A DNA stretch of 64,000 nt, taken from Candidatus Latescibacterota bacterium (lineage in GTDB: Bacteria; Latescibacterota; UBA2968; UBA8231). The stretch's first letter is position 1; every line of letters starts with the position of its first letter. The notes beneath the pieces are model-generated. The model was not told the DNA's origin. It ran no database searches and worked only from the letters and a program-made list of their open reading frames with translations. A program made the translations under genes and the position numbers. Positions 2,951-44,548 of this stretch are shown here, piece by piece. The DNA lies in assembly GCA_965203355.1 (NCBI GenBank), contig OZ241889.1, positions 832,001 to 896,000 of the forward strand. Direction: 5' to 3'.

Positions 2951-3919
2951 TTAGCTAAGGTACTCCGCAATCCGCTCCTCAATGCGTTGCAAGACGGGCA
3001 TTGCGCCGAGTTCGGCGTCGAAGTCTGTGCCTGTAACCCGTTGGAAAAGGTCGATATAGCGCTCGGCAACTTGGACGCGGATCTCGTCGTCGAGCGCGGG
3101 GATATTGTCGTCGGAAATGCCCTTGTCGCGGAGCCAGAGGCGCAGAAACTCCTTGTCGAGGCTTTCGGGCTCCTCGCCGCTTGCGTGGCGTTCTGCATAG
3201 GTGTCGCTGATCCAGAAGCGCGACGAATCGGGCGTGTGGATCTCGTCGGCAAGCGTGATGCGCCCGTCCGCATCCAGCCCCATTTCGTATTTGGTATCCA
3301 CGAGGATTAACCCTTGCTTGGCCGCTAGCGCCTCACCGCGCGCAAAAAGCGCGAGGGCGATCTCCTCGACTTGGGCCCAAGTGTCTTCTGGCACGAGACC
3401 TTGGGCGATGATCTCGTCGCGCGAAATCAGCTCGTCGTGGACCTCGTCCTTGGTCGTCGGCGTGATAATCGCCTCGTTGAAGGGCTGGTTTTTGACCATG
3501 CCGTCGGGCAGCGTGTGGCCGCAATAGTGCCGCACGCCTCTGTTGTAATGGGTCCAGATGGCGGTGTCCGAACTGCCCGTCAGATACTTGCGCACCACCA
3601 CCTCGACGGGCAGGATGTCCAACTCGCGGGCGACGGTGACGTTGGCGTCGGGCACTGAGATGATTTGATTGGGGGCGATGTCTTGGGTCTGCTCAAACCA
3701 GTACTGGGCAATGCGGTTGAGCACTTGGCCCTTGAGGGGAATGGTGCCGAGCACGTGGTCGAACGCGCTTTGGCGATCCGTCGTGATTAGTACGCGATGG
3801 TTTTCGAGCAAGTACATATCGCGCACCTTGCCGCGCTTATAGCGCGACTCCCACTGGGGGAATTTGGCCTCCAGCAGACAGTTGTCGAGTTGGGATTGGA
3901 TCTGTTGGCGAGTTACCAT
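2951..3919 (-). CDS. purC: Phosphoribosylaminoimidazole-succinocarboxamide (SAICAR) synthase
   Basis: GKVRD, TDRQSAFD, PVEVVVR.YLTGS, LVDTKYE.G, DEIHTPDSSRFW, DKEFLR. Confidence 0.96.
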   Translation of the reverse strand: MVTRQQIQSQLDNCLLEAKFPQWESRYKRGKVRDMYLLENHRVLITTDRQSAFDHVLGTIPLKGQVLNRIAQYWFEQTQDIAPNQIISVPDANVTVARELDILPVEVVVRKYLTGSSDTAIWTHYNRGVRHYCGHTLPDGMVKNQPFNEAIITPTTKDEVHDELISRDEIIAQGLVPEDTWAQVEEIALALFARGEALAAKQGLILVDTKYEMGLDADGRITLADEIHTPDSSRFWISDTYAERHASGEEPESLDKEFLRLWLRDKGISDDNIPALDDEIRVQVAERYIDLFQRVTGTDFDAELGAMPVLQRIEERIAEYLS

Positions 3920-3963
3920 AGAATAGATGTCCTCAAGCAAGAGAGTAAGGGGCGATAAAATTG

Positions 3964-3992
3964 ATATTATGAGCGCGTACAAACCCCGTCAA
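3964..3992 (-). promoter_or_regulatory. Putative sigma-70 promoter for purC
   Basis: TTGACG-N17-TAATAT on the minus strand. Confidence 0.55.
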
Positions 3993-4014
3993 TAGGGGCC
4001 GACGGAGCGCGTGC

Positions 4015-4043
4015 TTGATTTTCGTCTCTCGGCGGCGTATCTT
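4015..4043 (+). promoter_or_regulatory. Putative sigma-70 promoter for the lipoprotein gene
   Basis: TTGATT-N17-TATCTT. Confidence 0.4.
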
Positions 4044-4094
4044 GAGGCCGACGAAACGGACGAGGACAATCTCACCCCTACAAGGGAGGTCTAT

Positions 4095-4577
4095 ATGTCG
4101 AGGAAACTGGCTGCGTTGGCACTAGCAATAGGTCTGGTCGCCTGTGGTGGCGAGGAGGCAGAGAAGCAGATTCTGGTCGAATATGTCCAGCAGATGCAGA
4201 AACTAGACGACAAAAACAAGCAGATTGTCGAGACCATTGAGCATTTGAGAAAACCGCTCTCCGAGATTTCTGATCAGGACTTGGCCAAAGCGCGCCGACT
4301 CATCAACGACTATGTCACAGAGTTGCAAGGACTCGTGCCAGACGATCTGGACTATAAGGAATTGCGCCTGGCCCACAATCTCTACGTCACGAAGGTCGCG
4401 GACGCAATTCAACTGTCCGGCGACAAAGGCCGCGAGTTGCGGCGCGAAAAGAGCAACGTGGACATCGGCGTACGCCACATCGAGAAGCTGACCATCCGGC
4501 ATTACAAAGCCGTTGACATCTTGTGGTTACAGCGGAAGATCGCGGATTCCTATCCGCTCGCGTGGCCCTCTAGCTAG
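4095..4577 (+). CDS. Hypothetical helical lipoprotein
   Basis: GGAGG RBS before ATG 4095; MSRKLAALALAIGLVA-C lipobox. Confidence 0.8.
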   Translation: MSRKLAALALAIGLVACGGEEAEKQILVEYVQQMQKLDDKNKQIVETIEHLRKPLSEISDQDLAKARRLINDYVTELQGLVPDDLDYKELRLAHNLYVTKVADAIQLSGDKGRELRREKSNVDIGVRHIEKLTIRHYKAVDILWLQRKIADSYPLAWPSS

Positions 4578-4599
4578 CAGCTATAAACACCAACGCGAG

Positions 4600-4636
4600 A
4601 AAAGCCCCTAGGTCGCCATGCGGCCGGGGGCTTTTT
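4600..4636. terminator. Bidirectional intrinsic terminator between convergent genes
   Basis: AAAAGCCCC..GGTCGC-loop-GCGGCC..GGGGCTTTTT hairpin with A and T tails. Confidence 0.75.
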
Positions 4637-4641
4637 GCGTT

Positions 4642-6108
4642 CTATGGCACCCGGTGTAACCAGTGCTGGCTGCTGGAGAGCAAACCGGTGTAGAGAAAGC
4701 CGGCGTGGAACAACAGCAGAAAGGGCATCCCCAAGTAGAGGCCAGCCGCATAGGCGAGGTAGAGCGCGAAGACGAAGTAGAGTGCCATGCCCAGTTCGCC
4801 CAAAGACAGCAGCGGCCAGCGGCTTAGGTACCTGCGCTGCTGGCCTTGGTCTCGGCGTCCGGTAAGCCCGTATTTGGGCGTGCGGTGGAAAGCGGTTTGG
4901 TACCCGACGAGCCCCTCGACTACCGCTCGGGTGTTGTTGATGCAGAGACTCATGCCAATGGCCATCAGCATGGGCAAGTACTTGATCTGTCGTCGCCAAT
5001 CTGGATAGAGTACGCGCTGGGAGGTAATGTAGAAGCCAGAAATGGCCATGGTGGCAAAAGAAAACAGCGGCAGGTCGATGATAAAGAACCGCTCCCAGCC
5101 GAGTTGCGAGCGAATGGAAAGCACCGGAACGGTCAATAAGGCCATCAAGAGCATCATAATGTAGCAGAGATTGGCCGTTAGATGGAAGGTGGCCTCGACC
5201 TTGATCTTAGCTGGGAGCGGAGCGCGCCAAATCCGCGGCAGCACCTTCTTGGCCGTTTGGACCGCGCCCTTGGTCCAGCGGTGCTGTTGCGACTTGAAGG
5301 CATTGATTTCGATGGGGAGCTCGCCGGGCACTTCAATTTCGGGCAGGTAGAGAAACTGCCAGCCTGCCAGTTGGGCGCGGTAGCTCAAGTCGAGGTCTTC
5401 GGTGAGCGTGTCGTGCTGCCAGCCGCCGGCGTCGTAGATGGCCTTTTTGCGCCAAATCCCCCCGGTCCCATTGAAGTTGAAGAAGCGACCCGAGCGGTTG
5501 CGGGCCGTGTGCTCGACGACGAAGTGGCCGTCGAGAAAGATCGACTGGATGCGCGTCAGGAGCGAGTAGGAGCGGTTGAGGTGTCCCCAGCGCATCTGCA
5601 CCATGCCGATGGAATCGTCGGTAAAGTAGTGAATGGCTCGCTGGAGGATGTCGGGAGAGGGCACGAAATCCGCGTCGAGCACCAACACGAATTCGCCTTG
5701 GGCGCACGCTAACCCCGCAGCCAAGGCCCCAGCCTTAAAGCCATGGCGCTTGGTGCGGCCGAGGTACTCGATATCCAGCCCTTGGGCCGCCAGCCGTGCG
5801 ACCCCTTTCCGCGCCCGGTCGCGGGTTTCGTCCTGCGAGTCGTCGAGGACTTGGATTTGCAGGCGATCGCGGGGATAGTCGATCTGACCCACGGCCTCTA
5901 GCAGGCGATCGACCACGTGATATTCGTTGTAGAGCGGTAGCTGGATGGTGACGAAGGGCAGCTCGGCGAAGCGGTCGGGCTGGGGAACTGGAGTTGGGTG
6001 ATGTCGATAAAACAGGCGCAGTAGCTGGTAGCGGTGGAGGCCGTAAACGCCCAGAACGGCGATGATAATGCTGTACGACACCAAACAGAGTACTTCCCAG
6101 AAACTCAT
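4642..6108 (-). CDS. Glycosyltransferase family 2, cellulose-synthase-like (CslA-type) processive GT; alternative GTG start at 6120
   Basis: VLDDS, KAGAL, LDADF, FNGTGG, TEDLDL, QQHRW motifs; N- and C-terminal TM helices. Confidence 0.92.
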   Translation of the reverse strand: MSFWEVLCLVSYSIIIAVLGVYGLHRYQLLRLFYRHHPTPVPQPDRFAELPFVTIQLPLYNEYHVVDRLLEAVGQIDYPRDRLQIQVLDDSQDETRDRARKGVARLAAQGLDIEYLGRTKRHGFKAGALAAGLACAQGEFVLVLDADFVPSPDILQRAIHYFTDDSIGMVQMRWGHLNRSYSLLTRIQSIFLDGHFVVEHTARNRSGRFFNFNGTGGIWRKKAIYDAGGWQHDTLTEDLDLSYRAQLAGWQFLYLPEIEVPGELPIEINAFKSQQHRWTKGAVQTAKKVLPRIWRAPLPAKIKVEATFHLTANLCYIMMLLMALLTVPVLSIRSQLGWERFFIIDLPLFSFATMAISGFYITSQRVLYPDWRRQIKYLPMLMAIGMSLCINNTRAVVEGLVGYQTAFHRTPKYGLTGRRDQGQQRRYLSRWPLLSLGELGMALYFVFALYLAYAAGLYLGMPFLLLFHAGFLYTGLLSSSQHWLHRVP

Positions 6109-6122
6109 ATCGCTTTCCACGC

Positions 6123-9383
<3,261 letters not shown>

Positions 9384-25523: not shown

Positions 25524-25576
25524 GAATGGACACAGATATGGGATGATTTGCTTGCGCCCGCACCAAAGATGCGATG

Positions 25577-25632
25577 TTTTTACGGTTGTTCCGTACATTT
25601 TCGTTGTTTTTTTACGGTTGTTCCGTACATTT
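25577..25632. promoter_or_regulatory. Two identical 24-bp direct repeats (32-bp period), each with the dyad TACGG-N5-CCGTA; putative operators
   Basis: TTTTTACGGTTGTTCCGTACATTT at 25577-25600 and 25609-25632, directly before the ATPase start. Confidence 0.6.
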
Positions 25633-25637
25633 GCAAT

Positions 25638-26819
25638 ATGCAAAATTCCTCAAGGCAGCGTCTGCTTGAATTGCCCGAGTGCTCCTTTTTTCTTTTTGGT
25701 CCGCGCGGGGTGGGCAAAAGCACTTGGCTGCGCCAAGTCTTGCCCAAGGCCGCCTTCTTTGATTTGCTCGATGCGGCTCTTTATCTACAGTTATCAAGTA
25801 ACCCCCATGACCTAGAGGCACTAGTCGGCGATAGGGTGGCGGATTCGTGGGTCGTACTCGACGAAATCCAGAAAGTACCCGCCCTCTTAGACGAGGTGCA
25901 TCGCCTGCTAGAAACGCGGCGTTGGCGTTTTGCCCTGTGTGGTTCATCGGCACGCACATTGCGGCGCGGCGGCGTCAACCTCCTTGGTGGACGTGCGTTG
26001 ACTCGCTTTATGGCTCCGTTTTCCCGGCCGGAGTTGGGCGCCGATTTTGACGCTGAGTTCTCCCTGCAATGGGGCCTTTTGCCTCTCGTGCAAGCGGACC
26101 GACGGTACACCGCCGACCTGCTACAGGCTTACGTTCACACGTATATAAAGGAAGAAATCAGCGAGGAGGGTTTGGTGCGCCGGCTACCCCCTTTTCTCCG
26201 CTTTCTAGAAGTCGCTGGTCTACTTAACGCCCAAGTCGTCAACGGCCTAAACATCGCCCGCGATGCCGCCATTCCGCGCAGCAGTGTTGATGGATATTTC
26301 GCTGTCCTCCAAGATACCTTGCTCGGCCACTTCTTGCCGGCCTACCGCCCTCAGCTCAAAGTGCGGGAAAAGGCTCGGCCTAAATTCTACTGGTTCGACG
26401 CTGGGGTGGCCCGGGCCGCCGCTGGCCTCGCCTATGACCCGCCGGATCGCCTGTGGCTGGGCGCGGCCCTAGAGACTTTGGTCTATCACGAATTGCGCGT
26501 CTATAATCACGTGTACAACAAGCACCGTCCCATCGCCTTTTACCGCACTCCCGCTGGCGCGGAAATCGACTTTGTCATCGAAACGCGCAAACGCACGGTT
26601 TCTTCGCGGCCGCACGTCGTCTGTTTGGAAATCAAGTTGGCGGAAAAGTGGAACCGGAGCTGGGAGCGGTCCATGCGCTCCTTGTACGAGACAGAGGGCA
26701 TTGAGGTGGAGCGCATGATCGGCGTCTATGTTGGCGAGCGAGTCTATCGCTACGACGGCCTAGACGTGTGGCCGCTGGAGGAGTTTTTGCGCCGACTGTA
26801 CGAGGGTGAGGTCTTTTAG
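25638..26819 (+). CDS. AAA_14 ATPase with DUF4143 / C-terminal PD-(D/E)XK-like domain
   Basis: GPRGVGKST, LDEIQK, LCGSS, KFYWFDAGV, EIDFVI...LEIK. Confidence 0.9.
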   Translation: MQNSSRQRLLELPECSFFLFGPRGVGKSTWLRQVLPKAAFFDLLDAALYLQLSSNPHDLEALVGDRVADSWVVLDEIQKVPALLDEVHRLLETRRWRFALCGSSARTLRRGGVNLLGGRALTRFMAPFSRPELGADFDAEFSLQWGLLPLVQADRRYTADLLQAYVHTYIKEEISEEGLVRRLPPFLRFLEVAGLLNAQVVNGLNIARDAAIPRSSVDGYFAVLQDTLLGHFLPAYRPQLKVREKARPKFYWFDAGVARAAAGLAYDPPDRLWLGAALETLVYHELRVYNHVYNKHRPIAFYRTPAGAEIDFVIETRKRTVSSRPHVVCLEIKLAEKWNRSWERSMRSLYETEGIEVERMIGVYVGERVYRYDGLDVWPLEEFLRRLYEGEVF

Positions 26820-27959: not shown

Positions 27960-28820
27960 TTAGTTCCCCCAGCGATCTGGATTGATGCCCGGTGCGTCGC
28001 GCTGCATACCTTCGGGTTTGTGGACTTGTTTCCACGCCTTGCCGGTGGTGTTGCGGCTTTGGAGAAAAGGTTTGGCCGCGGCCGGCGCGTTTGCCACCCA
28101 TTCCGCGTCCCACTCGTCCATTGGCTGAACGGGCCCGGCCCAAGCCGGCCGGTAGCCAAACTGGATCAGTTCCCGAGGGGCTGAGTCCTTGTTGGGATGG
28201 GTGCCGTGGAAGAGGAGGGCCGGTATCATTACTACCGAACCGGCCTTGGCGCAGAGCGTGATTTCCTGCGGGTGCGAGACATAGCGCACGTACGGATTGG
28301 CTTGGGCGTGGAACGAGAGATGAGAACGCGGGATGAGCCGGAAGGGGGCGCGCTCGGGCGGCAGGTCGTCGAGGTAGTAGAGCACTCGCAAAAGGCGTGG
28401 CGACGAGCCTTCGTAGCCAAAGATCGACGAGCCAAATGGTTGGCCGTCCGTGTGCATTGAAATGCCCGGCGAGCCAGACAGCGTACGCGTAAAAAGCCCG
28501 TGCGTAAACACGATGTCTGGCCCCATCAGCGCTTTGAGGAATTCCGCAATCGGCGGATAGCCGATCAATTCGGCCACTAACCGGCTCGTGCATTGAGGCT
28601 CATGGTGGACGGTTTGGGCTTTGCTGTAGTCCTTGTGCGTCATTGGCAGGTTCTTCAACTCGGCCTTCAGCGCGGCCAGGTGCTCGGCGTTGAGCACCTC
28701 CGGCATGAGCACATAGCCTTCCACTTCGAGATGGCGGATCTGCTGGCTCAGGGAGAACGCGGCAAAATCCGTCTCATCAACCGTCATAAAGCCGATTTCT
28801 TCTTTGGGGTCGGTTTCCAC
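27960..28820 (-). CDS. Phytanoyl-CoA dioxygenase (PhyH) family Fe(II)/2OG enzyme
   Basis: EGYV, HTD, YYLDD, PRSH, HG...N...R; AGGAGG RBS before GTG. Confidence 0.9.
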   Translation of the reverse strand: METDPKEEIGFMTVDETDFAAFSLSQQIRHLEVEGYVLMPEVLNAEHLAALKAELKNLPMTHKDYSKAQTVHHEPQCTSRLVAELIGYPPIAEFLKALMGPDIVFTHGLFTRTLSGSPGISMHTDGQPFGSSIFGYEGSSPRLLRVLYYLDDLPPERAPFRLIPRSHLSFHAQANPYVRYVSHPQEITLCAKAGSVVMIPALLFHGTHPNKDSAPRELIQFGYRPAWAGPVQPMDEWDAEWVANAPAAAKPFLQSRNTTGKAWKQVHKPEGMQRDAPGINPDRWGN

Positions 28821-28829
28821 GATGTCCTC

Positions 28830-29492
28830 CTAGGCGCGGGATGCTCGCCACTTGGCGAGGGAAAAGTCGTCTGAATCGTACAGGGCAAAAACTTTCGCTT
28901 CCTGGTCCCGAACTTCGGCGGCCAATTCCAACACTTCCTCGGCATGCTCCAGCGGGATGCGCACACAACCGTCGCTGTCGCCGAAGATCAGGTCTCCCGG
29001 TCGAATCCGCACGGAGCCTACGGTAATCGGCGCGTTGACTCGCGTCGCGTTGAATACGCCGTGCCCTGGCACCGTCCCCCAAGCGAAGATCGGCAGCCCG
29101 ACCCGACGGATTCCCGCCAAGTCGCGCACCGTGCCATCGACAATGGCTCCCACGGCACCTAGCCGCTGGTGTAGCCGCGCCATGCCATCGCCAAAACTGG
29201 CCCCGCGCCCGGGACGCGAATCCACGTCCTTCATCACCGCGAATACAGGTCCCGCCATAGCGTCGATTGCTTCGTAGTACCCTTCCCAAGGGACTGCCGC
29301 CGAGTCCGGGTCGTTGGTCGTTACTTCCGCGGTCACTGCATAGCCGATGACCGGCCCCAATTCCGGCAGCAGATAGCGAATCCGATGGTCGGTGTACTCT
29401 TCGTTGGGCAGGCCGCACTTTAACACGATGGCATTGAAAATCGTCGGCGAGTCGAATCCCTTAAAAGCGTCTAGTATTGCGGGTTTGACCAT
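28830..29492 (-). CDS. RraA-family protein (HMG aldolase-like)
   Basis: GYAVT, FGDGMA, VDGTVRD, PGDLIFGDSDG; AAGGAG RBS before MVKP. Confidence 0.9.
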   Translation of the reverse strand: MVKPAILDAFKGFDSPTIFNAIVLKCGLPNEEYTDHRIRYLLPELGPVIGYAVTAEVTTNDPDSAAVPWEGYYEAIDAMAGPVFAVMKDVDSRPGRGASFGDGMARLHQRLGAVGAIVDGTVRDLAGIRRVGLPIFAWGTVPGHGVFNATRVNAPITVGSVRIRPGDLIFGDSDGCVRIPLEHAEEVLELAAEVRDQEAKVFALYDSDDFSLAKWRASRA

Positions 29493-29715
29493 AGAAAACT
29501 TGCTCCTTTTTGCAGTGGCGCGATTAACCGCCGATGCCGAACAGAAATGTCGTCTTTGGCCTCGGCGGGCTCCACCAGAGGGAATAGAGCGCATTCGCAG
29601 GGCGGCTGTCAAACCGCTTGGATCGGCAGCGGCGCGTTGGCTCTGGATTGACGCCCGCGCAAGACCTATACTTTGCGCTGTTCCCTGACGCCCGCTTAGC
29701 AAACCGGAGGATTGC

Positions 29716-29805
29716 ATGACTGCATCATTCGTATCAAAAGTTTCCAACTTATCCAACCTTGCCTTGGAACAGGGAGCGGCTTGGACCGCTAACCCGCTGA
29801 ACTGA
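29716..29805 (+). pseudogene. 29-codon stub homologous to the N-terminus of the downstream GH32 gene; its stop overlaps the next start (TGATG)
   Basis: MTASFVSKVSNLSNLALEQGAAWTANPLN vs GH32 MAPPDYTSKVPYHTFPDTLAEQEEELAANPLM; RBS CCGGAGGATTGCATG vs CCGGAGGATTCCATG. Confidence 0.75.
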
Positions 29806-30971
29806 TGAAGTCCCCTCCTATTCCTTCTCCCGATTCATATTGGGAGGCATCAGATCATCATTGGACTGAAGTCGAGGACGAAAAAGTCTTCGATCCGTGG
29901 GAGACCGAAGGCACGACGGGAGCAGACGAGAATACAGTAGCCAATAAAAAAGAAAAGGCATGGAGGGTAGATACGAAGGACGGCGTTCGTGATTCTGTAC
30001 CTGAAGAAGTGAGTCCGTCAAAACCTGATGAGCCACAAGATATACCCGCCAGCGAAGACAAATTCGGACCAGCGAGGATATCCACGGTAGATGAAGTCGT
30101 TCCGATGGAGTCTGAAAACAAGGAAGCTAGGAATGCCCTTGAGAAGGCGACAGATGACATGGTCTGCGCCGATGTCGAGCCAATGGAGTTGGAGGATGAT
30201 GGTAGTTGGCTGGACGACGATCTGCTCTATGAGACAGAGGACGATGGATCTGAAGACAGTGATTCTGACGATTCGATAAACGAAGATTCAGATATCTTCT
30301 TCGACGACATTCCCGAATTTGATGAGAATGCTCGGCAAGTACCATGGGAGATTAAACCTGAAGAAGAGGGCACCCGGCGCGCCCGCGATAAGGCAGCGGA
30401 CATAGCGAGCTTACTCTATTTGACGAGCCGCGATGATCAAGAGAGCACTCTGACCTACTTGATAGATTTGTTTGAGCATCCAGATCATTCTCATTCAAGT
30501 ACCTTTTACGCGATAAAAAGAATAGCATCGCAAGGACTGGATCTTGAAACCCTAAAGGCGATGGTAGAGTTGCGAAGTATTTGGAGACAGCGAACGGACT
30601 GGTGGAAAGGACGTTATAGTTATAGATACAGAGTCAGAAGGCTTGCCAACGGCGCGACGGCTTTTACGTGGGTAGCAGCGCATCGCGTGTGTCTGGAGCG
30701 AAAGGATTACCCCCCAGAAATGATGATCGATGACGATTGGGTCGACGAGTGGCTTATGTTGCCACCTTGGTCCTCCAGTGACTACTACATGAATTTCTCC
30801 TCCTATATAGCAGTGAAAGTCCAAAATCTCGATGCCGAACTTTTGGATTACGGCTTGAGTCAGCCGCAGCAATGTGAGAAAGGTATCGATGTATTTGAAC
30901 GTACTACTGCGACTGCGGCCCACTCGGTTCCAGAGATAGACTTATGGCGAGGGAAAGGAAAACGGCAATGA
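29805..30971 (+). CDS. Hypothetical protein: very acidic low-complexity N-half, Trp-rich helical C-half
   Basis: 388-aa ORF, visibly lower GC than flanks; stop overlaps the helicase ATG. Confidence 0.85.
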   Translation: MKSPPIPSPDSYWEASDHHWTEVEDEKVFDPWETEGTTGADENTVANKKEKAWRVDTKDGVRDSVPEEVSPSKPDEPQDIPASEDKFGPARISTVDEVVPMESENKEARNALEKATDDMVCADVEPMELEDDGSWLDDDLLYETEDDGSEDSDSDDSINEDSDIFFDDIPEFDENARQVPWEIKPEEEGTRRARDKAADIASLLYLTSRDDQESTLTYLIDLFEHPDHSHSSTFYAIKRIASQGLDLETLKAMVELRSIWRQRTDWWKGRYSYRYRVRRLANGATAFTWVAAHRVCLERKDYPPEMMIDDDWVDEWLMLPPWSSSDYYMNFSSYIAVKVQNLDAELLDYGLSQPQQCEKGIDVFERTTATAAHSVPEIDLWRGKGKRQ

Positions 30972-33823
30972 CCACAGATGTTAGGCTTCCGGTTGAAGGA
31001 TGTTGGGTTCGGCGGCGCGGTACTACGAGGAGTCCGTCGGGGATAGTAGTGAAAAAACCCATAGAAAAAAGCTCATTAAAGGTCAAAGTTAAGTGGCCTG
31101 ACCATCGGGAAGAGTGGATAGATGTTGGGAGCTTGGAATCGGGTTTTCAATCGGGCTGGACCGTTCAGGATGTGCCAATCTCGGCAACACGCAAGTCGCG
31201 AGGACGGGGAATAATCGTTAGCCAACGCAAAATAGCTCAACATGATCAGTACCTCGTGCAATTCGACGAAGACGGACGTTCAGATTGGTTGCCATACGAG
31301 AATCTACGTCGAATCAAATCAGTGAAAATGCGTTACGAGCGTACCGAAACGGGTATCGAAGACCACGCCGAGAGATTCCGGCTTCGACTTTTGGCACACG
31401 CACTCGAAAACTGGAATCACCTGACTGGTTCGCTAGATCGCTTGGATGTCGACCCGCTACCGCATCAGATCCAACTCGTCCACCGGATTTTGAGTTCTGG
31501 AAACTACAACTGGTTAATAGCCGATGACGTCGGACTAGGCAAAACCATCGAGGTCGGATTACTTCTTGCAGCTCTCAAGCGCAAAGGACAAGCACGTCGT
31601 GTGCTGGTAGTTTCGCCGGCTGGCCTAACTCGACAATGGCAGGACGAGCTCAAGTACAAGTTTGACCAAACATTTATGATATACGGACGTGATTTCAATA
31701 TTCACGATCACGATCACTGGAAACGCTACGACCATGTAATTGTCTCCATTGATCTCGCCAAGCGGGAAAATCACCTGGATATATTTCGGCAGGCCGATGG
31801 ATGGGACATCGTTGTATTCGACGAAGGCCACAAGCTCACCCGACATGCCAGTGGCGATCGAGCAGATCGCTATAAATTGGCAGAAATGCTGCGGCCGATG
31901 TCCGATAGTTTTTTTCTTTTAAGTGGTACCCCTCATCAAGGTTATGTGGATCGATTTATATCGATCTTGGAGCTCGTACGGCCGGATCTAAGCCGACAGA
32001 TACACACACTCAGATTAAATCCAGAAATCGTGAGCGAACTGATTCTGAGAAATCGCAAAAGCGAGGTTACTGACGCCGATGGTCAATTCATTTTTAAAGG
32101 GCAAGACATACATCGGATTCCGGTGAAGCCATCAAGAGAAACGATCAAATTCCAGACATTACTGGACGGTTATCTACGACACGGTTATAGATCAGGAGAA
32201 AGGGGAGGGAATACCGGTCGTGCCATCGGATTCGTTATGACAACATATCGAAAACTCGCCTCGTCTAGCATTGCAGCCATCGAACGCTCCCTCCAGTTGA
32301 GGCTAGAAAAGTTATCTGGCGAATCGGATGAAGACAAAGCAAATAGTCGCGATAGAGAATTGACGCTAGACGACCTGTCCGAGGGAGGAGATGACCAAGA
32401 CGATCTTGCAATGAGTATGTCGAGTACTGGGACTAGGGAATTTTTCGCTCACGAACGGGAGATGATCGAAGGCTTGCTTGAGGCAGCAAAGGTCGTGTAT
32501 CAGAATGACGAGAAGCTACAAATATTTCTCAATAAAGTTGTTGCACCGCTTGTTGAGAAAGGCGAGAAGCTATTGGTCTTTACGGAATACCGGGGAACAC
32601 AATCTTACCTCAAGGAAGCACTTGAGAATAAATTTCCCGAAGTAGGAGAGATTGAACTTATAAATGGCTCAATGGGATTGGACGAGAAACTAGAGGCCAT
32701 TAGTGCTTTCAATGAGTCGGCGCAGTTTATGGTTTCAACGGAAGCTGGCGGCGAGGGCATCAATCTACATGAGTCGTGTCACGTGATGGTAAACTACGAT
32801 CTACCATGGAATCCGTCTCGGTTGGTCCAGCGTATTGGCCGATTATACCGATATGGTCAAAAGGAGAAAGTCGTTGTCTTTAACCTACACGCCCGCGATA
32901 GTTTCGATAACTCTGCGATTGATTTGATGCTTCAACGTATAACTAATATCGTGCAGGACATGGCGCCGGTAGGAGAAGAGTACAATGAAAGACTTGATGC
33001 CGAGATTTTAGGCGAAATTTTGGAGAATATGGACCTAGCCTCAATTCTGAGATCGGCAACGGACATGAACACCAAGCGCACACAAGAAGAGATCGATAAA
33101 GCACTGAAGCGAGCTCAAGAAGCTAAAAAATTGCAAGATGAGGTTTTTACTCACGTTGCAGGCTACGACCCGAACGCTTTAGGAGGTACTATTGGCTTTA
33201 CGATGCAGCACGTTGATCTATTCATTCGCAATATGTTGCCGATCGCTGGGATTGGCCTGCAAACGACTCTATACGATGGAGAAGTTTTGGAAATCCGCCT
33301 ACCCAAAGACCTGCAAGGCGAGTTCCCTGAATTTGGCCGACGAACGGTAGTGAGAGTCACAACGAATCGACGACTTTCGCACCGACTCCGAGATGTCGTG
33401 TTACTCGATTTTGAAACGCAGTTTTTTCAGCATTTGATCAAGTTGGCAAAATCACAAGAATTTGATGGTCTGTACGCTTCGGCCTTATCGAATGTAGGAG
33501 AGCCGGGGATACTTGCCGCATTTAAGCTGCGCTGGCAGAATGATCAAGGAAAGGCATTGACTGAGGAGTTCGTCCCACTGTTTGCTACCGCTGATGGGAA
33601 GGTTTCAGAGAATCCACCATTCCTTGCCGAGTGGCTAATGTCTCAGATTAAGTCTGTGCCGGTGCCCAACTCTGACAGGGCAATTCGCGGTGAGGCTTAC
33701 AATGGTCTGATAGAGGAGGCTGACAGGATCCTTGATTCCAAAAGTACGCGATTCAAATATCCAAACGGCCGGGTAGATCTCGCAGCGGCGGATTGCAGGC
33801 CACGAAAGAGTAACATTGATTAG
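30968..33823 (+). CDS. SNF2-family (RapA/HepA-like) SF2 helicase/ATPase
   Basis: PLPHQ, IADDVGLGKTIE, DEGH, LSGTPHQG, STEAGGEGINL, NYDLPWNPSRLVQRIGRLYRYGQ; ATGA overlap with the upstream gene. Confidence 0.95.
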   Translation: MTTDVRLPVEGCWVRRRGTTRSPSGIVVKKPIEKSSLKVKVKWPDHREEWIDVGSLESGFQSGWTVQDVPISATRKSRGRGIIVSQRKIAQHDQYLVQFDEDGRSDWLPYENLRRIKSVKMRYERTETGIEDHAERFRLRLLAHALENWNHLTGSLDRLDVDPLPHQIQLVHRILSSGNYNWLIADDVGLGKTIEVGLLLAALKRKGQARRVLVVSPAGLTRQWQDELKYKFDQTFMIYGRDFNIHDHDHWKRYDHVIVSIDLAKRENHLDIFRQADGWDIVVFDEGHKLTRHASGDRADRYKLAEMLRPMSDSFFLLSGTPHQGYVDRFISILELVRPDLSRQIHTLRLNPEIVSELILRNRKSEVTDADGQFIFKGQDIHRIPVKPSRETIKFQTLLDGYLRHGYRSGERGGNTGRAIGFVMTTYRKLASSSIAAIERSLQLRLEKLSGESDEDKANSRDRELTLDDLSEGGDDQDDLAMSMSSTGTREFFAHEREMIEGLLEAAKVVYQNDEKLQIFLNKVVAPLVEKGEKLLVFTEYRGTQSYLKEALENKFPEVGEIELINGSMGLDEKLEAISAFNESAQFMVSTEAGGEGINLHESCHVMVNYDLPWNPSRLVQRIGRLYRYGQKEKVVVFNLHARDSFDNSAIDLMLQRITNIVQDMAPVGEEYNERLDAEILGEILENMDLASILRSATDMNTKRTQEEIDKALKRAQEAKKLQDEVFTHVAGYDPNALGGTIGFTMQHVDLFIRNMLPIAGIGLQTTLYDGEVLEIRLPKDLQGEFPEFGRRTVVRVTTNRRLSHRLRDVVLLDFETQFFQHLIKLAKSQEFDGLYASALSNVGEPGILAAFKLRWQNDQGKALTEEFVPLFATADGKVSENPPFLAEWLMSQIKSVPVPNSDRAIRGEAYNGLIEEADRILDSKSTRFKYPNGRVDLAAADCRPRKSNID

Positions 33824-33892
33824 ATCATTATGAAATTGTGCATTGTACAGATCGAATCCGATCACCCAACCCCCTGAACGCCGGAGGATTCC

Positions 33893-35437
33893 ATGGCCCC
33901 CCCCGATTACACGTCAAAGGTCCCCTACCACACCTTCCCCGACACCTTGGCCGAACAAGAGGAAGAACTGGCCGCCAATCCGCTGATGCAGCGCCTGCTC
34001 GAAGCGCGCCGCTCGTACGCCGGCGATCCGCATCGTCCCATCTACCACTACATCAACCCCGAGGCCAATCTCAACGACCCCAACGGGCTTTGCTGCTGGC
34101 AGGGCCGCTACCATCTCTTCTACCAAGCCTATCCACCGGAGGATACCCGCCAGCACTGGGGCCACGCCATAAGCGACGACCTCGTCCACTGGCGCGACCT
34201 GCCGTACTGCATTTATCCGCACCCAGAGCGCTGCTGTTTTTCAGGGGCCACGCTGGTCGAAGAAGACCGCGTCATTGCCATGTACCACGGCACCGAGGTC
34301 GGCAACATGGTCGCCACTTCGGCGGACCCGCTCCTGCTCAACTGGAAAAAGGTCGCCAACAAGGCCGTGATCCCCATTCAGCCCGGCCAGCCCTACCGAG
34401 TCTTCGACCCCTGCATCTGGAAGCAAGGCGACGCGTACTACTCGCTGTCGGCGGGCACCAAACCCGAAGGTCCGGCCAACAAGCCCGTCCGCGCCAACTT
34501 TCTCTTCAGGTCGAGCGATCTCGAACACTGGGAGTACCTCCACCCTTTTGTCGAGGACGATGGATACACGCTAGTCGGCGACGACGGAGCCTGCCCCTAC
34601 TTCTGGCCGATCGGCGACCGCCACATCCTCCTCTTCTTCAGCCATAGAAGCGGCGGCCAGTACCTGCTTGGCGACTACGACACTGAGCGCGACAAGTTCG
34701 TCGTAACCTATGGGGCCAAGTTCAACTTTGGCGCGGCCGGGCCGTCGGGCGTCCACGCTCCCTCGGCGACCCCCGATGGCCAGGGCGGCGTCTTGGTCCT
34801 CTTCAACATGAACCCCGGCAAGCCGACTAAGAACTGGAACCAGATTATGACCTTGCCTCGCCGACTGACTGGGGTCGGCGACGCTTTGGCCATGGAGCCG
34901 GCCGGCGACCTTGAGTCGCTCCGGCGCGACCACCAGCACATCGGCAAAACCACTCTCCCCGCCAACAAAGAACTCGTCCTCGATGAAGTCCGGGGCAATG
35001 CCATGGAAATCGTCGTCGAGCTGGATCCCCAAGACGCGCCCATGGTCGAACTCAATGTCCTGCGCGCGCCCGGCAAGGAGGAGCACACGCGCATCGCCTT
35101 TTTCAAAAACCGGGGCTTCAGCAACCGCGTCTTTGGCAGCGACCGCCACCAGAGCCTAATCTCGCTCGACACCTCGTATGCTTCGGTCGCGCCCGATGTC
35201 CTCTCTCGCGCTCCAGAAACCGCCCCGGTCATCCTCGCCCCAGGCGAGACGCTCAAGCTGCGGGTTTTTGTCGATAAGAGCGTCGTCGAAGTTTTTGCCA
35301 ATGGCCAGCAATGCGTGGCCGCCCGGGTCTATCCCGACCGCGCCGACAGCCTTGGGGTCTCGTTGCGCGCACAGGGCCAGCGCGCCGAATTGGTCTCGCT
35401 CGACGCCTATCAGATGCAGAACATCTACGCTCAATAG
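33893..35437 (+). CDS. Glycoside hydrolase family 32-like protein (non-canonical acid/base motif)
   Basis: NDPNG, YHLFYQ, WGHA.S.DLVHW, FSG, FDP, LPRRL, FVDKSVVEVF. Confidence 0.92.
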   Translation: MAPPDYTSKVPYHTFPDTLAEQEEELAANPLMQRLLEARRSYAGDPHRPIYHYINPEANLNDPNGLCCWQGRYHLFYQAYPPEDTRQHWGHAISDDLVHWRDLPYCIYPHPERCCFSGATLVEEDRVIAMYHGTEVGNMVATSADPLLLNWKKVANKAVIPIQPGQPYRVFDPCIWKQGDAYYSLSAGTKPEGPANKPVRANFLFRSSDLEHWEYLHPFVEDDGYTLVGDDGACPYFWPIGDRHILLFFSHRSGGQYLLGDYDTERDKFVVTYGAKFNFGAAGPSGVHAPSATPDGQGGVLVLFNMNPGKPTKNWNQIMTLPRRLTGVGDALAMEPAGDLESLRRDHQHIGKTTLPANKELVLDEVRGNAMEIVVELDPQDAPMVELNVLRAPGKEEHTRIAFFKNRGFSNRVFGSDRHQSLISLDTSYASVAPDVLSRAPETAPVILAPGETLKLRVFVDKSVVEVFANGQQCVAARVYPDRADSLGVSLRAQGQRAELVSLDAYQMQNIYAQ

Positions 35438-35450
35438 AAAGGAGCACACC

Positions 35451-36185
35451 ATGAACGAAGAAGAAAAATTCGCCTTTGACCTAGCGGGTTATCTGGTCAT
35501 CAAAGACGTCCTCAGCCCGCCGGAACTGGACGATCTCAACGCGCTGGTCGCCCGGCACATCGACGGCTGGGATAACCACCCTCGCAACGATTTGAACAAA
35601 GTCAGTAGCTGGAGCCAAGCCACCAAAAGCCTGATTGACCATCCCAAAATCCTGCCCTACTTAATCGAACTCATCGGCCCCAAGGTCCGCATTGACCACG
35701 ACTACGCCATTATCATGAATCGCGGGGACTCCCGCGGCGGTCTCCACGGCGGTCCGAGCCAAGACACCGACCACTGGTTCAGTTACCGCGACGGCCAGAT
35801 GCGCAATGGCCTGAGCGTGGTGACCTTTTTTCTCGCCGATGCCAATGAGGGCGACGGCGGCTTTGCCTGTGTGCCGGGCAGCCACAAAACCAATTATCCC
35901 CGCAATCTGCCCCAAGATGTCAGGCATTTCGAGCGCGACGCGCATTACGTGGTCCAACCGACGGCTAAGGCCGGGGACGCGCTGTTTTTTACCGAGGCCC
36001 TCATCCACGGCACCATGCCGTGGTGCGCCGAGCATCAACGCCGCACCTTGCTCTACAAGTACAGCCCCGGCTACTCAACGTGGGCCAAGGAGTTTTACAA
36101 CCTCGAGGAGTACGGCGCGCTGACCGAACGACAGAAGCGCATCATGGCCCCCCCTTCGATGCACGACCACCCCGAGATCGTTTAG
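35451..36185 (+). CDS. PhyH family dioxygenase
   Basis: AAGGAG RBS; GYLVI, LHGG, GGFACVPGSHK, FTEALIHGT..W....RR.LLYKY. Confidence 0.9.
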   Translation: MNEEEKFAFDLAGYLVIKDVLSPPELDDLNALVARHIDGWDNHPRNDLNKVSSWSQATKSLIDHPKILPYLIELIGPKVRIDHDYAIIMNRGDSRGGLHGGPSQDTDHWFSYRDGQMRNGLSVVTFFLADANEGDGGFACVPGSHKTNYPRNLPQDVRHFERDAHYVVQPTAKAGDALFFTEALIHGTMPWCAEHQRRTLLYKYSPGYSTWAKEFYNLEEYGALTERQKRIMAPPSMHDHPEIV

Positions 36186-36205
36186 GTCAGGAGCGCATCC
36201 ATGCT

Positions 36206-36253
36206 ATGTCCGCCCGCTTGCTAAGCGAAAAGAAAGCCTTTGTCACCGGCGGC
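36206..36253 (+). pseudogene. N-terminal stub of an SDR
   Basis: AGGAG RBS then MSARLLSEKKAFVTGG, after which similarity stops. Confidence 0.5.
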
Positions 36254-36269
36254 GTCCTTGCGTTAGCTG

Positions 36270-36614
36270 TATTACCGGGGCGTCCCCGAAAACAACTACG
36301 CCGAACTGTTCTACGACTTTATCCCCGCGTGGATCGCGCCGCAGGACTTAGAGGCCGTCAAGATACTACGCTATCCGATGGTTCAGCTACCGCAGAGTAT
36401 GATCGAGAAGGACGCTGGCGCGTGTGTGGCTTCTTTCTTTAAGGACCAGCGGATGTGGTTGGGGTTTGCCGTGCCGTTCATCTTGCTCAGTCTCAACGCC
36501 CTCAACCAATACTTCCCGTTCGTACCCGGTCCGGTTTTCCTTCTTAAAACATACCTTTGTTTGGCAGATCGAATCGCGTACTTCGCCGATGGGTACTGGC
36601 TGACGAATATGTGA
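36270..36614 (+). pseudogene. Internally deleted remnant of a DUF6785/DUF6784-like multi-pass membrane protein
   Basis: PENNYAELFYDFIPAWIAPQD / LRYPMVQLP / MWLGFAVP..L.SLNAL..YFP / WLTNM-stop: motifs normally far apart are juxtaposed. Confidence 0.6.
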
Positions 36615-36747
36615 TATTTTGCGCGGATGCACCGCGGTAATGTCATTGTTTGTCAGGTGTCTGGAGCTTTGCTTTGGATAGTCCGATTATTTATAATTTG
36701 AGAACACTGAGATCGTTATAGTACATCGGCGTAAATAGGTTCACAAA

Positions 36748-37934
36748 ATGTCTACGATTACGTCACGACCCAAGATACAACGCTACCATTCGCTTGACTG
36801 CTTGCGAGCCGTCATGATGTTACTGGGTTTGGTTTTTCATTCTTCATTGCATTATTTTCCGGTTCCATACCTCAGGAATCAGATTTATTTGGACACAAAG
36901 ACGAGTGTTTACTTTCAGCACATATTTAGTTTCATCCACAGCTTCCGTATGCCAGCCTTTTTCTTGATTGCCGGGTTCTTCGCGGCCTTTCTGTGCGACA
37001 CGCGCGGGACAAGGACGTTCTTGAAACACCGCCTAAACCGCATAGGTATCCCACTCGCCTGTTTCATGCCCATTCTAACTCCGATAGTCGGTTTATGCGT
37101 ATACTATGCACAACTTTTCACGGTCGGCCCCTTATTTCCCGACCCCAGTTTCAGCTCGATATTTAATGGCCTGTTTATGCATCTCTGGTTCCTGTACCAT
37201 TTGCTAATTCTCTCTGTTGTTGCCGTCCCTGTCAGGAGTCTCATCCGTCGTCTGCGTGCGGATTTACGCGACCGCATACTCAACACCTTCGCACGAATGC
37301 TCTGCCGTCCTTATGGTCTAGTTCTACTAGCCGCAATAAGCGGTTTGACGCTATACCGCATGAAGTATTGGACACTTGACTATACAGGTTCTCCTCTCCC
37401 GCCCCTGCATATTTTAGCTACATACGCAGTATTTTTTATTGTTGGGTGGCTAATTTTCAAACGCCGCGAAGTTCTCGAGGGTTTTAAATCGCGTGCTTGG
37501 GAACATTTTGTCATTGGCCTTGTGTGCCATGGGCTATACCAGTTCTTTTATTTTCAAGGGTATGGAGATGATACCGCAGTTCGCGCTCATGTCCTAGCAA
37601 TGGCCTGTCTGGCCCTGTCGATATGGGCGTTGATTTATGGCTTCCTCGGGTTGTTCTTGCGTTATCTCGACAAACCGAGCCGCTACTGGCGCTACGTGTC
37701 TGACGCTTCGTACTGGATGTATATCATTCATTTTCCAGTAACCATCGCCTTGCCGCCCTCTTTACAGACCTTCCCCTTCCCTCAGGCATCAAGTTCAGCC
37801 TCACACTCATTGGGACAACGGCCATCACGCTGGTCACGTACCATTATTGGGTTCGCGGAACCTTTATCGGCGAAAGGCTCAACGGACGACGCTATCCGAG
37901 GGTGGTGCCGTGGCGAGAAGTCCCTACCACCTGA
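36748..37934 (+). pseudogene. Acyltransferase-3 (OpgC/MdoC-like) membrane protein with a frameshift near 37755
   Basis: RYHSLDCLRA.MM.LG..FH, IHSFRMPAFF, DASYW.YI.H; canonical tail KFSLTL...YHYWVRGTFIGERLNGRR is in another frame ending at TGA 37934. Confidence 0.8.
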
Positions 37935-38335
37935 ATCTGTCGCTGATCAAGTGGGCTGGTGCCCACGGCTGGCCGTACATCGGCCCGACCATTCTCGACC
38001 AGCCCGAAGCCAACATGCGCGGTTGGCTCTTTAAGGGGATTGGCGCGGCCGTGGAGGGCTTTTTAATGTGGGCGCAGCACCGATGGTTTTGGTGGCCTTT
38101 TCACCCGATCGGCTTTGCCATTGCCGTGGGCTGGCTGACGAGTCAGATCTGGTTCTCGGCGCTGATCGCTTGGCTTCTGAAACTGGTCATCCTGCGCTTT
38201 GGCGGGGTGCGTTTGTTTCAGAATGCCAAGCCGTTTTTTCTGGGGTTGATTTTGGGCGAGGTGTCCGTGTCGGGCGTGTGGGGCGCGATCTATGCGATGA
38301 CCGCGGAAAAGGGGCGCTGGCTGACGAATATGTGA
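37931..38335 (+). pseudogene. C-terminal fragment of a DUF6784-like membrane protein
   Basis: WWPFHPIGF, WFS..IAW..K..ILRFGG, PFFLGLILGE; no start codon or RBS. Confidence 0.75.
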
Positions 38336-43240: not shown

Positions 43241-44548
43241 TTAGGCTGGGTTGAAGTCTTTTATCGTCAGTCCATCGTGTCTTTGGGCGGACAAGCCAAC
43301 GTTATTACACAGATCGAGGTTAAACAAGTTTAGGACGCGAATAATCTCGTCGCTGCTGCCAAGTGAGTATCTGGGAAATCGAGTGGAATCCATCGGGTTG
43401 CCTTGTAGGAAATCTATAGTTTGATCTGGCACAATTAGGAACGGCAAAGGCTCTCCGTAAATGTACACTTCCAACTCCAAAGCATATTCGGCGACCGGGG
43501 CTCCAGCATGATTCCTGAGTTTATCAATCCAGACCATCAAATTGGCAAACATGGTTATTAGCTCTCTGGCATATAGGTATCCTCCGGCGTGGCCCGGTTG
43601 AAATCGTAGCCAGCCTTCTGAACGGGAAGTAACCATACCTAGTTCAACGAGTCCGCTACAGTATATTTCTTGGTACGATTTTGTTGTCCCTCTTGCAATC
43701 TTTTCCATCCTTGCCCCGCGTAAAATCGGTCGGTACATCGGTTGCAAGCCGTACGTTGAAGAAGTTCTAAAGCCTCCACCTTCTAACTCGTAGGAATCAT
43801 CGCCTGAGTGTACCATAACGCTGTGCCAAGACAAATCATCGCTCAACGCCTTATGGCCGGGGTCAAACCATATTTCGTCGCCCAAAGGTGCAGCAGTTGC
43901 CCGGATGCCTATTGCATCCTGTTGCCAATTATCAAGGACATGGAATTCCTCCTTAAATCGTTTTGACCGTTCAGTAAGCAACGTATCGAGTTTTTCTGTT
44001 CCTCTTGCAAGATTGAGTACAAGGTCTTGGATTTCACGCATGGTCATTTTCTCGCATCGATCCGATCGTCGGATGGGACAAACAAGGCTAGGTTTGACGC
44101 GGTGTGGAGCCAGCCTTGAACGGCTAACACGAATTATGATGGCGCCGGCATCGCCTTGTGTTTCTATGTGGATGATTTCAATTCCCGGAATGTGTGGTTC
44201 TACGCAATCGCGGAATATCAACCCTAGGCGGTTTGCTAAGTCGGCGCAACGGGGAATGGGGGAAATTTTGTTGGCAACCCCCGGGCCATTTTCAGACTTT
44301 TCCTCGTCTATGCCCAGTATGAGAGCACCGCCGAAAGCGTTTGCAAAAGCGACAGATTCCTCAAGAATTTTGCTTTTCGCTTTCTTGCCTAGATTTCCAC
44401 TCTCATACCAAGAATCTTCTTGTCCCTTTTCTGCTGATAAATCCCTCTTGAATTCAATCCGCTCGTCTTCCTGTACACGCGAGTCAATCAATGCTTTCAG
44501 ATCATCAACGTCCAACTGGTAGGCAGGTTTGGTGAGTATGTCTATCAT
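43241..44548 (-). CDS. Schlafen/AlbA_2 domain protein
   Basis: QEDERIEFKR, AFANAFGGALILGIDE, PH.V....IRR...C..M; low GC. Confidence 0.88.
   Translation of the reverse strand: MIDILTKPAYQLDVDDLKALIDSRVQEDERIEFKRDLSAEKGQEDSWYESGNLGKKAKSKILEESVAFANAFGGALILGIDEEKSENGPGVANKISPIPRCADLANRLGLIFRDCVEPHIPGIEIIHIETQGDAGAIIIRVSRSRLAPHRVKPSLVCPIRRSDRCEKMTMREIQDLVLNLARGTEKLDTLLTERSKRFKEEFHVLDNWQQDAIGIRATAAPLGDEIWFDPGHKALSDDLSWHSVMVHSGDDSYELEGGGFRTSSTYGLQPMYRPILRGARMEKIARGTTKSYQEIYCSGLVELGMVTSRSEGWLRFQPGHAGGYLYARELITMFANLMVWIDKLRNHAGAPVAEYALELEVYIYGEPLPFLIVPDQTIDFLQGNPMDSTRFPRYSLGSSDEIIRVLNLFNLDLCNNVGLSAQRHDGLTIKDFNPA

Follow-up and report, generated by a model that had tools for sequence, protein, structure and literature searches.

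How can a foreign pair of genes come to lie inside the first codons of a host gene, find a way to be expressed there, and leave the host gene intact? The question is raised by a 64,000-nucleotide (64-kb) stretch of a Candidatus Latescibacterota genome (contig OZ241889.1, positions 832,001 to 896,000; hereafter the window, to whose positions the coordinates refer throughout), in which a cassette of two genes, one for an SNF2-family ATPase and one for a partner protein, is flanked by two diverged copies of the 5' end of a glycoside hydrolase family 32 (GH32) gene. We consider it likely that this arrangement goes back to an old duplicative insertion of a promoterless gene pair, that the truncated left copy of the GH32 start (the stub) acts as a leader handing ribosomes to the partner gene, and that GH32 itself was kept by the right copy. 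The locus as it stands in the window (allele WIN) is laid out below; alleles with the cassette are called filled, and those without it empty.

27960-28820, minus strand: PhyH-family gene (open reading frame (ORF) scan)
28830-29492, minus strand: RraA-like gene, the divergent upstream neighbour in filled and empty alleles (Pfam RraA-like, E 1e-24)
29581-29682, plus strand: conserved upstream block, GGAATAGAGCGCATTCGCA ... GGATTGACGCCCGCGCAAGACCTATACT, the presumed GH32 promoter (comparison with relatives)
29683-29800, plus strand: left repeat copy, with the GH32 5' untranslated region (UTR), Shine-Dalgarno (SD) sequence, ATG and ~28 decayed codons (alignments)
29716-29805, plus strand: stub ORF (leader), 29 codons, translated MTASFVSKVSNLSNLALEQGAAWTANPLN and then the stop (sequence)
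29805-30971, plus strand: partner gene, 388 aa, without an SD of its own (ORF)
30968-33823, plus strand: SNF2-family ATPase gene, RapA/DrmD/BrxH-like (Pfam SNF2-rel_dom and Helicase_C; the longest ORF, 959 aa, runs from 30944)
33824-33871, plus strand: spacer from the SNF2 stop to the right copy, kept among the five filled alleles
33872-33986, plus strand: right repeat copy, with a shortened UTR, SD, ATG and the first 31 GH32 codons (alignments)
33893-35437, plus strand: intact GH32 gene, 514 aa (Pfam Glyco_hydro_32N 1.4e-37, 32C 2.4e-24)

Alignment confirms 29683-29800 and 33872-33986 as two copies of the GH32 5'UTR and first ~30 codons. The repeat extends from CCCTGAC (29683) and CCCTGAAC (33872) to CCGCTGA (29800 and 33986), and thus begins somewhat further 5' than the 29704 and 33881 given in an earlier note on this DNA (the original prediction). 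The ribosome-binding site (RBS) and start codon, CCGGAGGATTGCATG (29704-29718) and CCGGAGGATTCCATG (33881-33895), agree at 14 of 15 positions, SKV, EQ and ANPL are common to the stub peptide and the GH32 N-terminus, and the copies differ by an indel of ~12 nt in the UTR before the RBS as well as by a gap of 2 codons. Local DNA alignment of 29679-29810 with 33860-33995 under three scoring schemes suited to diverged DNA gave z = 6.8-8.4, a significant result in that none of 3000 shuffled controls scored as high and only 1-2 of the 4178 tiles of the window did. A stricter scheme recovered only the RBS block (8/2000 shuffles as high) and the ANPL block (23/2000), and the peptides alone align weakly (82/5000). 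The homology of the two copies is settled by the stubs of four other genomes, which are intermediates (the stub of locus L013, for example, reads MTAAPDYTSKASNLSDIALEQEAALAANLLS). The flanking of the SNF2 cassette by two diverged GH32 5' ends is therefore as originally predicted, and the same holds for the TGATG overlap of the stub stop (TGA, 29803-29805) with the first ATG of the cassette (29805-29807) and for the lack of mobility genes nearby: the 64 kb contain no tRNA, and the 19 ORFs scanned in the interval 13.3-44.5 kb include no member of an integrase or transposase family. The cassette holds only the partner and SNF2 genes, no inverted repeats were found to pair its ends, and an Rfam search of 28500-36500 gave no match at E ≤ 0.1.

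A comparison with related genomes provides both states of the locus. Among the 80 loci returned by a GH32 search of species-representative genomes, 22, all from Latescibacterota-type metagenome-assembled genomes, have a GH32 orthologue 91-95% identical to that of the window and, adjoining it upstream, an RraA-like orthologue (90-96% identity). Eighteen of these are empty and read simply rraA, promoter block, GH32. Their rraA-GH32 intergenic regions measure 183-244 nt, or more in L002, L015 and L018, which have extra DNA 5' of the conserved block; the block ends in GACCTATACT, followed within ~45 nt by GGAGG and ATG ACT GCC GCG CCC GAC TAC. None of the 18 contains a second GH32-start-like sequence between rraA and GH32, so that no close cassette-free relative combines a stub with the full gene, and the stub scores 56-113 (background) against the empty intergenic regions versus 126-176 against the GH32 start. 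The two results that would have counted against the original prediction, an alignment no better than shuffled controls and relatives with both stub and full gene, thus did not materialise. An outgroup with a GH32 of 80% identity, L020, is empty too. The remaining four loci (L005, L011, L013 and L079) are filled, with the partner and SNF2 genes of the window in the corresponding position, and in each of them a stub stands behind the conserved block and a shortened UTR precedes GH32. The conserved block, which includes a -10-like TATACT hexamer at 29667-29672, precedes the GH32 ATG in the 18 empty loci and the stub in all five filled alleles, and the right copy has no such block 5' of it. Since all five stubs have a 6-nt deletion relative to GH32 and identical junctions in common, the filled alleles trace to one event.

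That event is old. Among the five filled alleles the synonymous divergence (dS) of SNF2 is 0.28-0.61 (mean 0.44), close to the 0.29-0.53 (mean 0.40) of the three flanking genes, which points to a single insertion of about the crown age of the clade. If the stub is treated as neutral and the GH32 start as constrained, simple arithmetic dates the duplication to ~three crown depths, on the long stem to L020, and time alone would then explain the divergence of the copies. A tree built from the three flanking genes scatters the filled alleles (4-5 changes are needed), with WIN sister to the empty L001 and L011 sister to the empty L019, and the association of the filled status with flank variants is lost less than 100 bp from GH32. 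The 3-nt deletion at codon 2 found in 4/5 right copies occurs in 0/18 empties, as do stub-type codons 2-8, so the empties are not simple repeat-by-repeat excision products of the present filled alleles. Ordinary allelic exchange through the flanks is the likelier source of the scatter.

The original prediction had read the synonymous differences between the copies as a sign that both had been under coding selection and resembled orthologous starts of separate lineages. This does not fit the five stubs. Their coding parts differ from one another by a p-distance of 0.15-0.31, compared with a synonymous p-distance of 0.24-0.38 in the flanking genes of the same genomes; two of the five (L005 and L079) are frameshifted by 1-nt deletions near the 3' end; and of the pattern SKVP-x-[YF]-x-F...L-x-EQE...NP, kept in nearly all of 77 printed GH32 N-termini from many phyla, the [YF]-x-F part has been lost in 5/5. 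The roughly synonymous rate and the lost motif argue for decay after insertion, and not for orthology: the stub is, on these distances, a decaying remnant drifting at about the synonymous rate. A foreign GH32 lineage was considered as donor of the stub and rejected, no lineage matching the stubs better than the host clade. The identification of the stub as a GH32 5' remnant, on the other hand, was borne out, since it is still joined to its ancestral upstream block.

Each stub differs from its own GH32 start by 0.43-0.48 (0.32 in L013), and both copies are mosaic. In the left copy the UTR is host-like (p 0.27 to the empties, which differ by 0.20 among themselves) and the coding part diverged (0.43-0.48), and in the right copy the UTR is diverged (0.54) and the coding part host-like (0.13). 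The right UTR even so retains non-coding sequence of the host clade, CCCT(T)AACGAC and CCCTAACGAC. As the first ~29 nt of the L013 stub are those of its own GH32 start, the sequences demonstrate gene conversion between the copies. The RBS of the right copy is GGAGGATTCC in WIN, which is the left or empty type, GGAGAAC-AAGATC in L011, L013 and L079, and GGAGGCCCATCTC in L005; because the other four filled alleles differ in this region, the 14/15 match in WIN is probably the result of later gene conversion or recombination.

How is the cassette expressed? The stub has kept its SD (GGAGG) in 5/5 alleles, and its ATG as well, and neither GGAG nor GAGG occurs in the 20 nt before the partner ATG in the 4/4 alleles in which the two are not fused. 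The stub stop overlaps the partner ATG (TGATG or TAATG) in WIN, L011 and L013 and lies 4 nt upstream of it in L005; the L079 stub has been joined in frame, by a deletion, to partner residue ~21, giving a 404-aa protein that starts from the GH32 start codon. The three sequence features that mark a leader, namely an SD with ATG, a downstream gene without SD, and a stop at or near the next start, are thus all present, and in all five filled alleles the cassette appears to use the stub's translation start, as had been proposed. Downstream, the partner TGA overlaps the SNF2 ATG (ATGA, 30968-30971 in WIN) in WIN, L005 and L011. This ATG is preceded by AAGGAAA and is likely the true SNF2 start, and the start of the longest ORF, 30944, is likely not real. 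We also considered that a 5-nt duplication (CTGAA/CTGAT) had converted an in-frame GH32-partner fusion to TGATG; it involves too few bases to claim.

Taken together, these observations suggest the following course of events. In one old duplicative insertion a promoterless two-gene module would have entered the GH32 reading frame ~95 nt from its start and come to be bracketed by two copies of a GH32 segment of ~120 bp (about -35 to codon ~31). Of these, the left one has stayed attached to the conserved upstream block while its coding part has decayed about neutrally, and, because SD, ATG and a stop at or near the partner ATG were retained, it could go on working as a leader ORF that passes ribosomes, presumably by termination and reinitiation, to a partner gene without its own SD; the ATGA overlap would continue the arrangement to SNF2. 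The host gene would have survived because the right copy has retained an SD together with the whole of GH32, and its preservation by this second copy agrees with the original prediction that the host gene was restored. Transcription of the cassette would start from the presumed host promoter at 29581-29682, from which GH32, too, is probably read through. Expression capture by the stub is well supported by the comparison of the five alleles.

Several points weigh against this reading. The exact overlap of stop and start has been lost in 2/5 alleles, and the form of the coupling is therefore not strictly conserved. A consensus promoter scan passed over the conserved upstream block, in which TTGACG is only 13 nt from TATACT and the hexamer at 17 nt, TGGATT, is weaker. 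The same scan called neither a promoter nor a plus-strand terminator between the SNF2 stop and GH32, which carries little weight precisely because it missed the upstream block, and GH32 could conceivably have an internal promoter in the conserved spacer. A single transcript with translational coupling is something that we infer. Finally, the GC content of the cassette (0.48) has not shifted toward that of the host (0.62), despite a dS of ~0.44.

As to how the duplication arose, the original prediction had invoked Campbell-type integration: a small circle carrying the cassette and a GH32 5' fragment from another lineage would have entered by a single homologous crossover, the two copies having diverged beforehand. 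We regard this as possible, at some distance from likely. Its topology is indeed that of a single crossover, with a left copy cut at the end of the fragment and a right copy without promoter, and this layout fits, as it fits any duplicative insertion; no circle junction was seen in the contigs. The mosaic would suit a crossover near the ATG (left UTR and right coding part host-like), and no recombinase, tRNA or terminal inverted repeat was found. The same mosaic is, however, expected from duplication in place followed by selection, which would preserve the UTR and start of the left copy in the service of the cassette, and the coding part of the right copy in that of GH32, and the near-synonymous drift and lost motifs of the stubs point to decay after insertion. 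Since the right UTR holds non-coding sequence of the host clade, any donor must have been a close relative, whose coding start would then have been nearly identical. In addition, the module lacks a GH32 fragment or flanking repeat both in genome G090, which carries it at another site, and at 20 metagenome loci (z below 3). A second tentative candidate is an illegitimate event in place, such as a microhomology-mediated template switch into foreign DNA and back to a point ~120 bp upstream, which would have made the copies identical at first. The distances between stubs (p ~0.26) and between stub and own GH32 start (~0.45) are compatible with time alone, the cassette has no conserved non-coding ends in G090 or L113, as the capture of bare ORFs predicts, and foreign genes wedged inside operons are frequent in these genomes. 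Yet such an event has left no direct trace, any microhomology at the junctions has decayed beyond reading, and the insertion in G090 came without a long duplication, which makes duplication no regular feature of the module's arrival.

Two further origins seem to us very improbable. Had there been two tandem GH32 genes, the upstream one decaying to a stub and the cassette taking the place of its remainder, paralogue decay would indeed leave a stub ahead of a full copy; but only one GH32 start, and nothing stub-like between rraA and GH32, occurs in the 18/18 close cassette-free loci and in the outgroup L020, the right copy is homologous only from ~20-35 nt 5' of its ATG and includes no second promoter block, no GH32 remnant remains to the left of the cassette beyond codon ~31, and in none of the 80 loci do two full or half-decayed GH32 genes stand together. 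A site-specific or transposon-like element with an unusually long target duplication would account for the direct repeats around the insert, and can hardly be entertained when no integrase or transposase in the scanned ORFs, no tRNA and no terminal inverted repeats at the cassette ends were found and the G090 module sits, without long duplication, in what is a 7-9 nt gap. One could also speculate that the repeats have turned the cassette into a mobile module that needs no recombinase of its own, looping out by RecA-type recombination as a circle with one repeat and re-entering empty GH32 alleles in Campbell fashion. This would explain the scatter of filled alleles on the flank tree (4-5 changes), and we think it improbable given that 0/18 empties are excision-like, that linkage is gone in less than 100 bp, and that no joints were seen in contigs. 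Six sequencing runs contain the stretch or part of it, all as contigs and none listed as RNA, and four of them were compared; no empty-allele, circle or deletion joints were seen in the four, which is weak evidence because contigs drop rare variants. In two runs a single contig spans the entire stretch, and these may be where it came from. In the X5 run the GH32 part is deeper than the cassette, and a loose end after 29680 continues with another type of UTR, which hints at other strains only.

Turning to the proteins, the SNF2 gene product scores above the Pfam cut-offs for SNF2-rel_dom (66.5 bits, cut-off 24.9) and Helicase_C (70.5 bits, cut-off 23.5), and a ratio of nonsynonymous to synonymous divergence of 0.14-0.19 among the five filled alleles indicates that it is under purifying selection. 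Its best solved relative in the PDB is RapA (6e-29), a protein of similar length, and its PADLOC matches are to BrxHI (9.8e-99), DrmD (7.5e-89) and HmaA (2.4e-75). It falls below every NCBIfam equivalog cut-off, scoring 161.3 bits against the 576 required for RapA (NF003426) and 328.7 against the 610 for DrmD (NF038317); in place of the DISARM companions drmA, drmB, drmC and a methylase, the neighbours at the locus are RraA, PhyH and GH32 genes, and for BREX the BrxHI match spans the core only (168-731), with no brx-like gene in the ORFs scanned between 13.3 and 44.5 kb. The host gene belongs to GH32 by Glyco_hydro_32N (130.3 bits) and 32C (86.6 bits), both above the Pfam cut-offs in an open frame of 514 aa.

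The partner has no match in Pfam, NCBIfam or PADLOC in the window allele, and neither Pfam (13 members scanned) nor PADLOC (3 members scanned) recognised its family. In its AlphaFold 2 model the residues 187-350 form a helical domain with a predicted local distance difference test (pLDDT) score of ~85-92, and residues 1-186, acidic and disordered, score below 50. Foldseek against the PDB found nothing at E ≤ 0.001 with this fold, the best matches of a wide VIA-align search, calpain domain IV and clamp-loader delta, reached a Z of no more than 5.6, not enough for a helical domain, and a protein atlas search gave no usable match. Relatives do exist: a word-based search found 29 and a profile search 218 representative clusters, 166 of them at E ≤ 1e-10. 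In L013 the partner gene (3820-5055) contains an internal tandem duplication, with WRQRTDWW occurring twice, and its match in the genome search is split in two with a stop inside; this copy may be decaying.

The pair also occurs elsewhere. Five of 167 genomes from the phylum have the partner, four at the GH32 site and one, G090 (L087 6516-10673), with the pair between nuoD and nuoH (partner 46% identical over the C-terminal half, SNF2 69%). There it has an AAGGAGG of its own and is likewise promoterless. No long flanking repeat was found at this site beyond a doubtful match of ~9 nt resembling AACGCAAAA, G090 and the window have no non-coding cassette ends in common, and the window's spacer at 33824-33871 has nothing in common with the cassette copy of G090 or with L113. 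The gap between nuoD and nuoH measures 7-9 nt in 8 of 13 relatives of G090. Comparison of L090-L102 presents this junction as an operon-internal insertion hotspot, with WD40-repeat genes in L097 and L101, a gene for a PQQ-like beta-propeller in L092 and other DNA in L096 and L102. The empty-allele genome G005 has no close copy of the cassette elsewhere (best 32%).

A metagenome scan with the partner alignment yielded 600 pattern matches, none of which was confirmed. A scan with SNF2 yielded 80 loci, in 30 of which (E ≤ 1; 28 at E < 0.001) a partner-family gene stands immediately 5' on the same strand; 20 of these had enough flank, and no flanking repeats or GH32 fragment were found at them, all z being below 3 (8 further loci were left out because their flanks were too short or the SNF2 ORF was not separate). 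Among the genes nearby at these loci are those for a ~1000-aa Type III-like methyltransferase (L113, L129), RNaseH-like and SF1 helicases (MkoA-like), PDC-S68 and a NERD-kinase. In L113 (1425-8853), L129 and L154, the closest relatives outside the clade, partner, SNF2 and ~1000-aa Type III-like methyltransferase form an apparent three-gene unit, whose methyltransferase in L113 matches PADLOC PDLC03632 with E = 0. This unit is a candidate for an undescribed restriction-modification-like system, and the module as a whole may have a defence-type role.

Around the cassette the window shows a clear change in composition, with flanks of ~0.60 GC and values of 0.45-0.51 from 29.8 to 33.8 kb (0.482 in the cassette, 0.626 in GH32). 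Another low-GC patch (0.43-0.50) at 36400-37800 coincides with an Acyl_transf_3 gene (36748-38034), which may be another acquired gene, just 3' of the pair formed by GH32 and a second PhyH gene, on the plus strand, that follows it. A DUF4143/AAA_14 ATPase gene and a gene with a Schlafen AlbA_2 domain (25548-26819 and 43241-44548) lie less than 10 kb to either side; both families are frequent in defence neighbourhoods. The rraA-GH32 intergenic region 5' of the conserved block is itself variable among relatives. It holds an Amidohydro_2 gene in L011 (2610-3587) and L015 (6848-7843), and part of one in L079 (~3005-3800), a solute-binding protein gene in L013 (2368-3471) and a small XhlA-like ORF in L018 (6248-6553). 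In L002 (~7790-7960) an element of ~165 bp with terminal inverted repeats lies between the -10-like hexamer and the UTR.

The locus is of interest as a clear example from nature in which a promoterless pair of foreign genes occupies the first part of a host gene that stays intact by virtue of a short duplication, and one for which 5 filled and 18 empty alleles are available for comparison; the decaying stub would still supply the cassette with promoter and ribosome entry. It also draws attention to an undescribed conserved gene pair, composed of an orphan partner family and a RapA/DrmD-like SNF2 ATPase, which in Latescibacterota sits inside housekeeping operons (GH32, and nuoD|nuoH in G090). 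If the pair does serve in defence, its placement within an operon would be an uncommon means of ensuring that it is expressed.

Among known arrangements, the same layout is produced in the laboratory by Campbell-type insertion-duplication with a suicide vector, which gives a truncated 5' fragment with promoter, the insert, and a promoterless complete gene. That is a laboratory procedure, however, and no natural circle, vector or junction was seen here; a literature search found no natural Campbell-type example. In its SNF2 core the cassette resembles DISARM DrmD, BREX BrxHI and BrxHII, Hma HmaA and RapA, and the metagenomic pairs have Type III-like methyltransferases, MkoA-like helicases and PDC-S68 as neighbours. 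Unlike in DISARM, BREX and Hma, none of the other genes of these systems is present at the locus, and the partner belongs to no described family.

A natural parallel is the insertion of e14 or phage 21 in E. coli icd, which leaves the pseudogene fragment icdC and whose copies, according to the account cited, recombine into chimeras (PMC13626634). There as here, the insert lies between a host gene that stays functional and a displaced, diverged fragment of its end. As far as that account goes, the duplicated end in icd is the 3' end, the insert is a prophage that encodes a site-specific integrase for itself, and it brings the replacement piece along, whereas in the present case it is the 5' end, no recombinase was found, and the displaced copy would have a role in expression; only partner and SNF2 lie inside, and the repeats are ~115-118 bp long and diverged, not a short identical core. 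For the leader itself the closest counterparts are ORF-11, ORF-17 and ORF-18 in attI1 of class 1 integrons, in which a leader with SD and ATG drives a promoterless first cassette by termination-reinitiation and, for the ORF-11 type, the initiation region is described as mattering much and the amino-acid sequence little (PMC8876359). Integron integrase, attI and attC were not seen at our locus: no integrase family is present in the scanned ORFs, no inverted repeat was found at the cassette 3' end (no formal attC model was run), and the 3' spacer is not conserved in G090. The leader here is, moreover, a decayed piece of a host gene. What the two have in common, within what the cited source describes, is a short SD-bearing leader that ends at or near the start of a cassette without a translation initiation region of its own.

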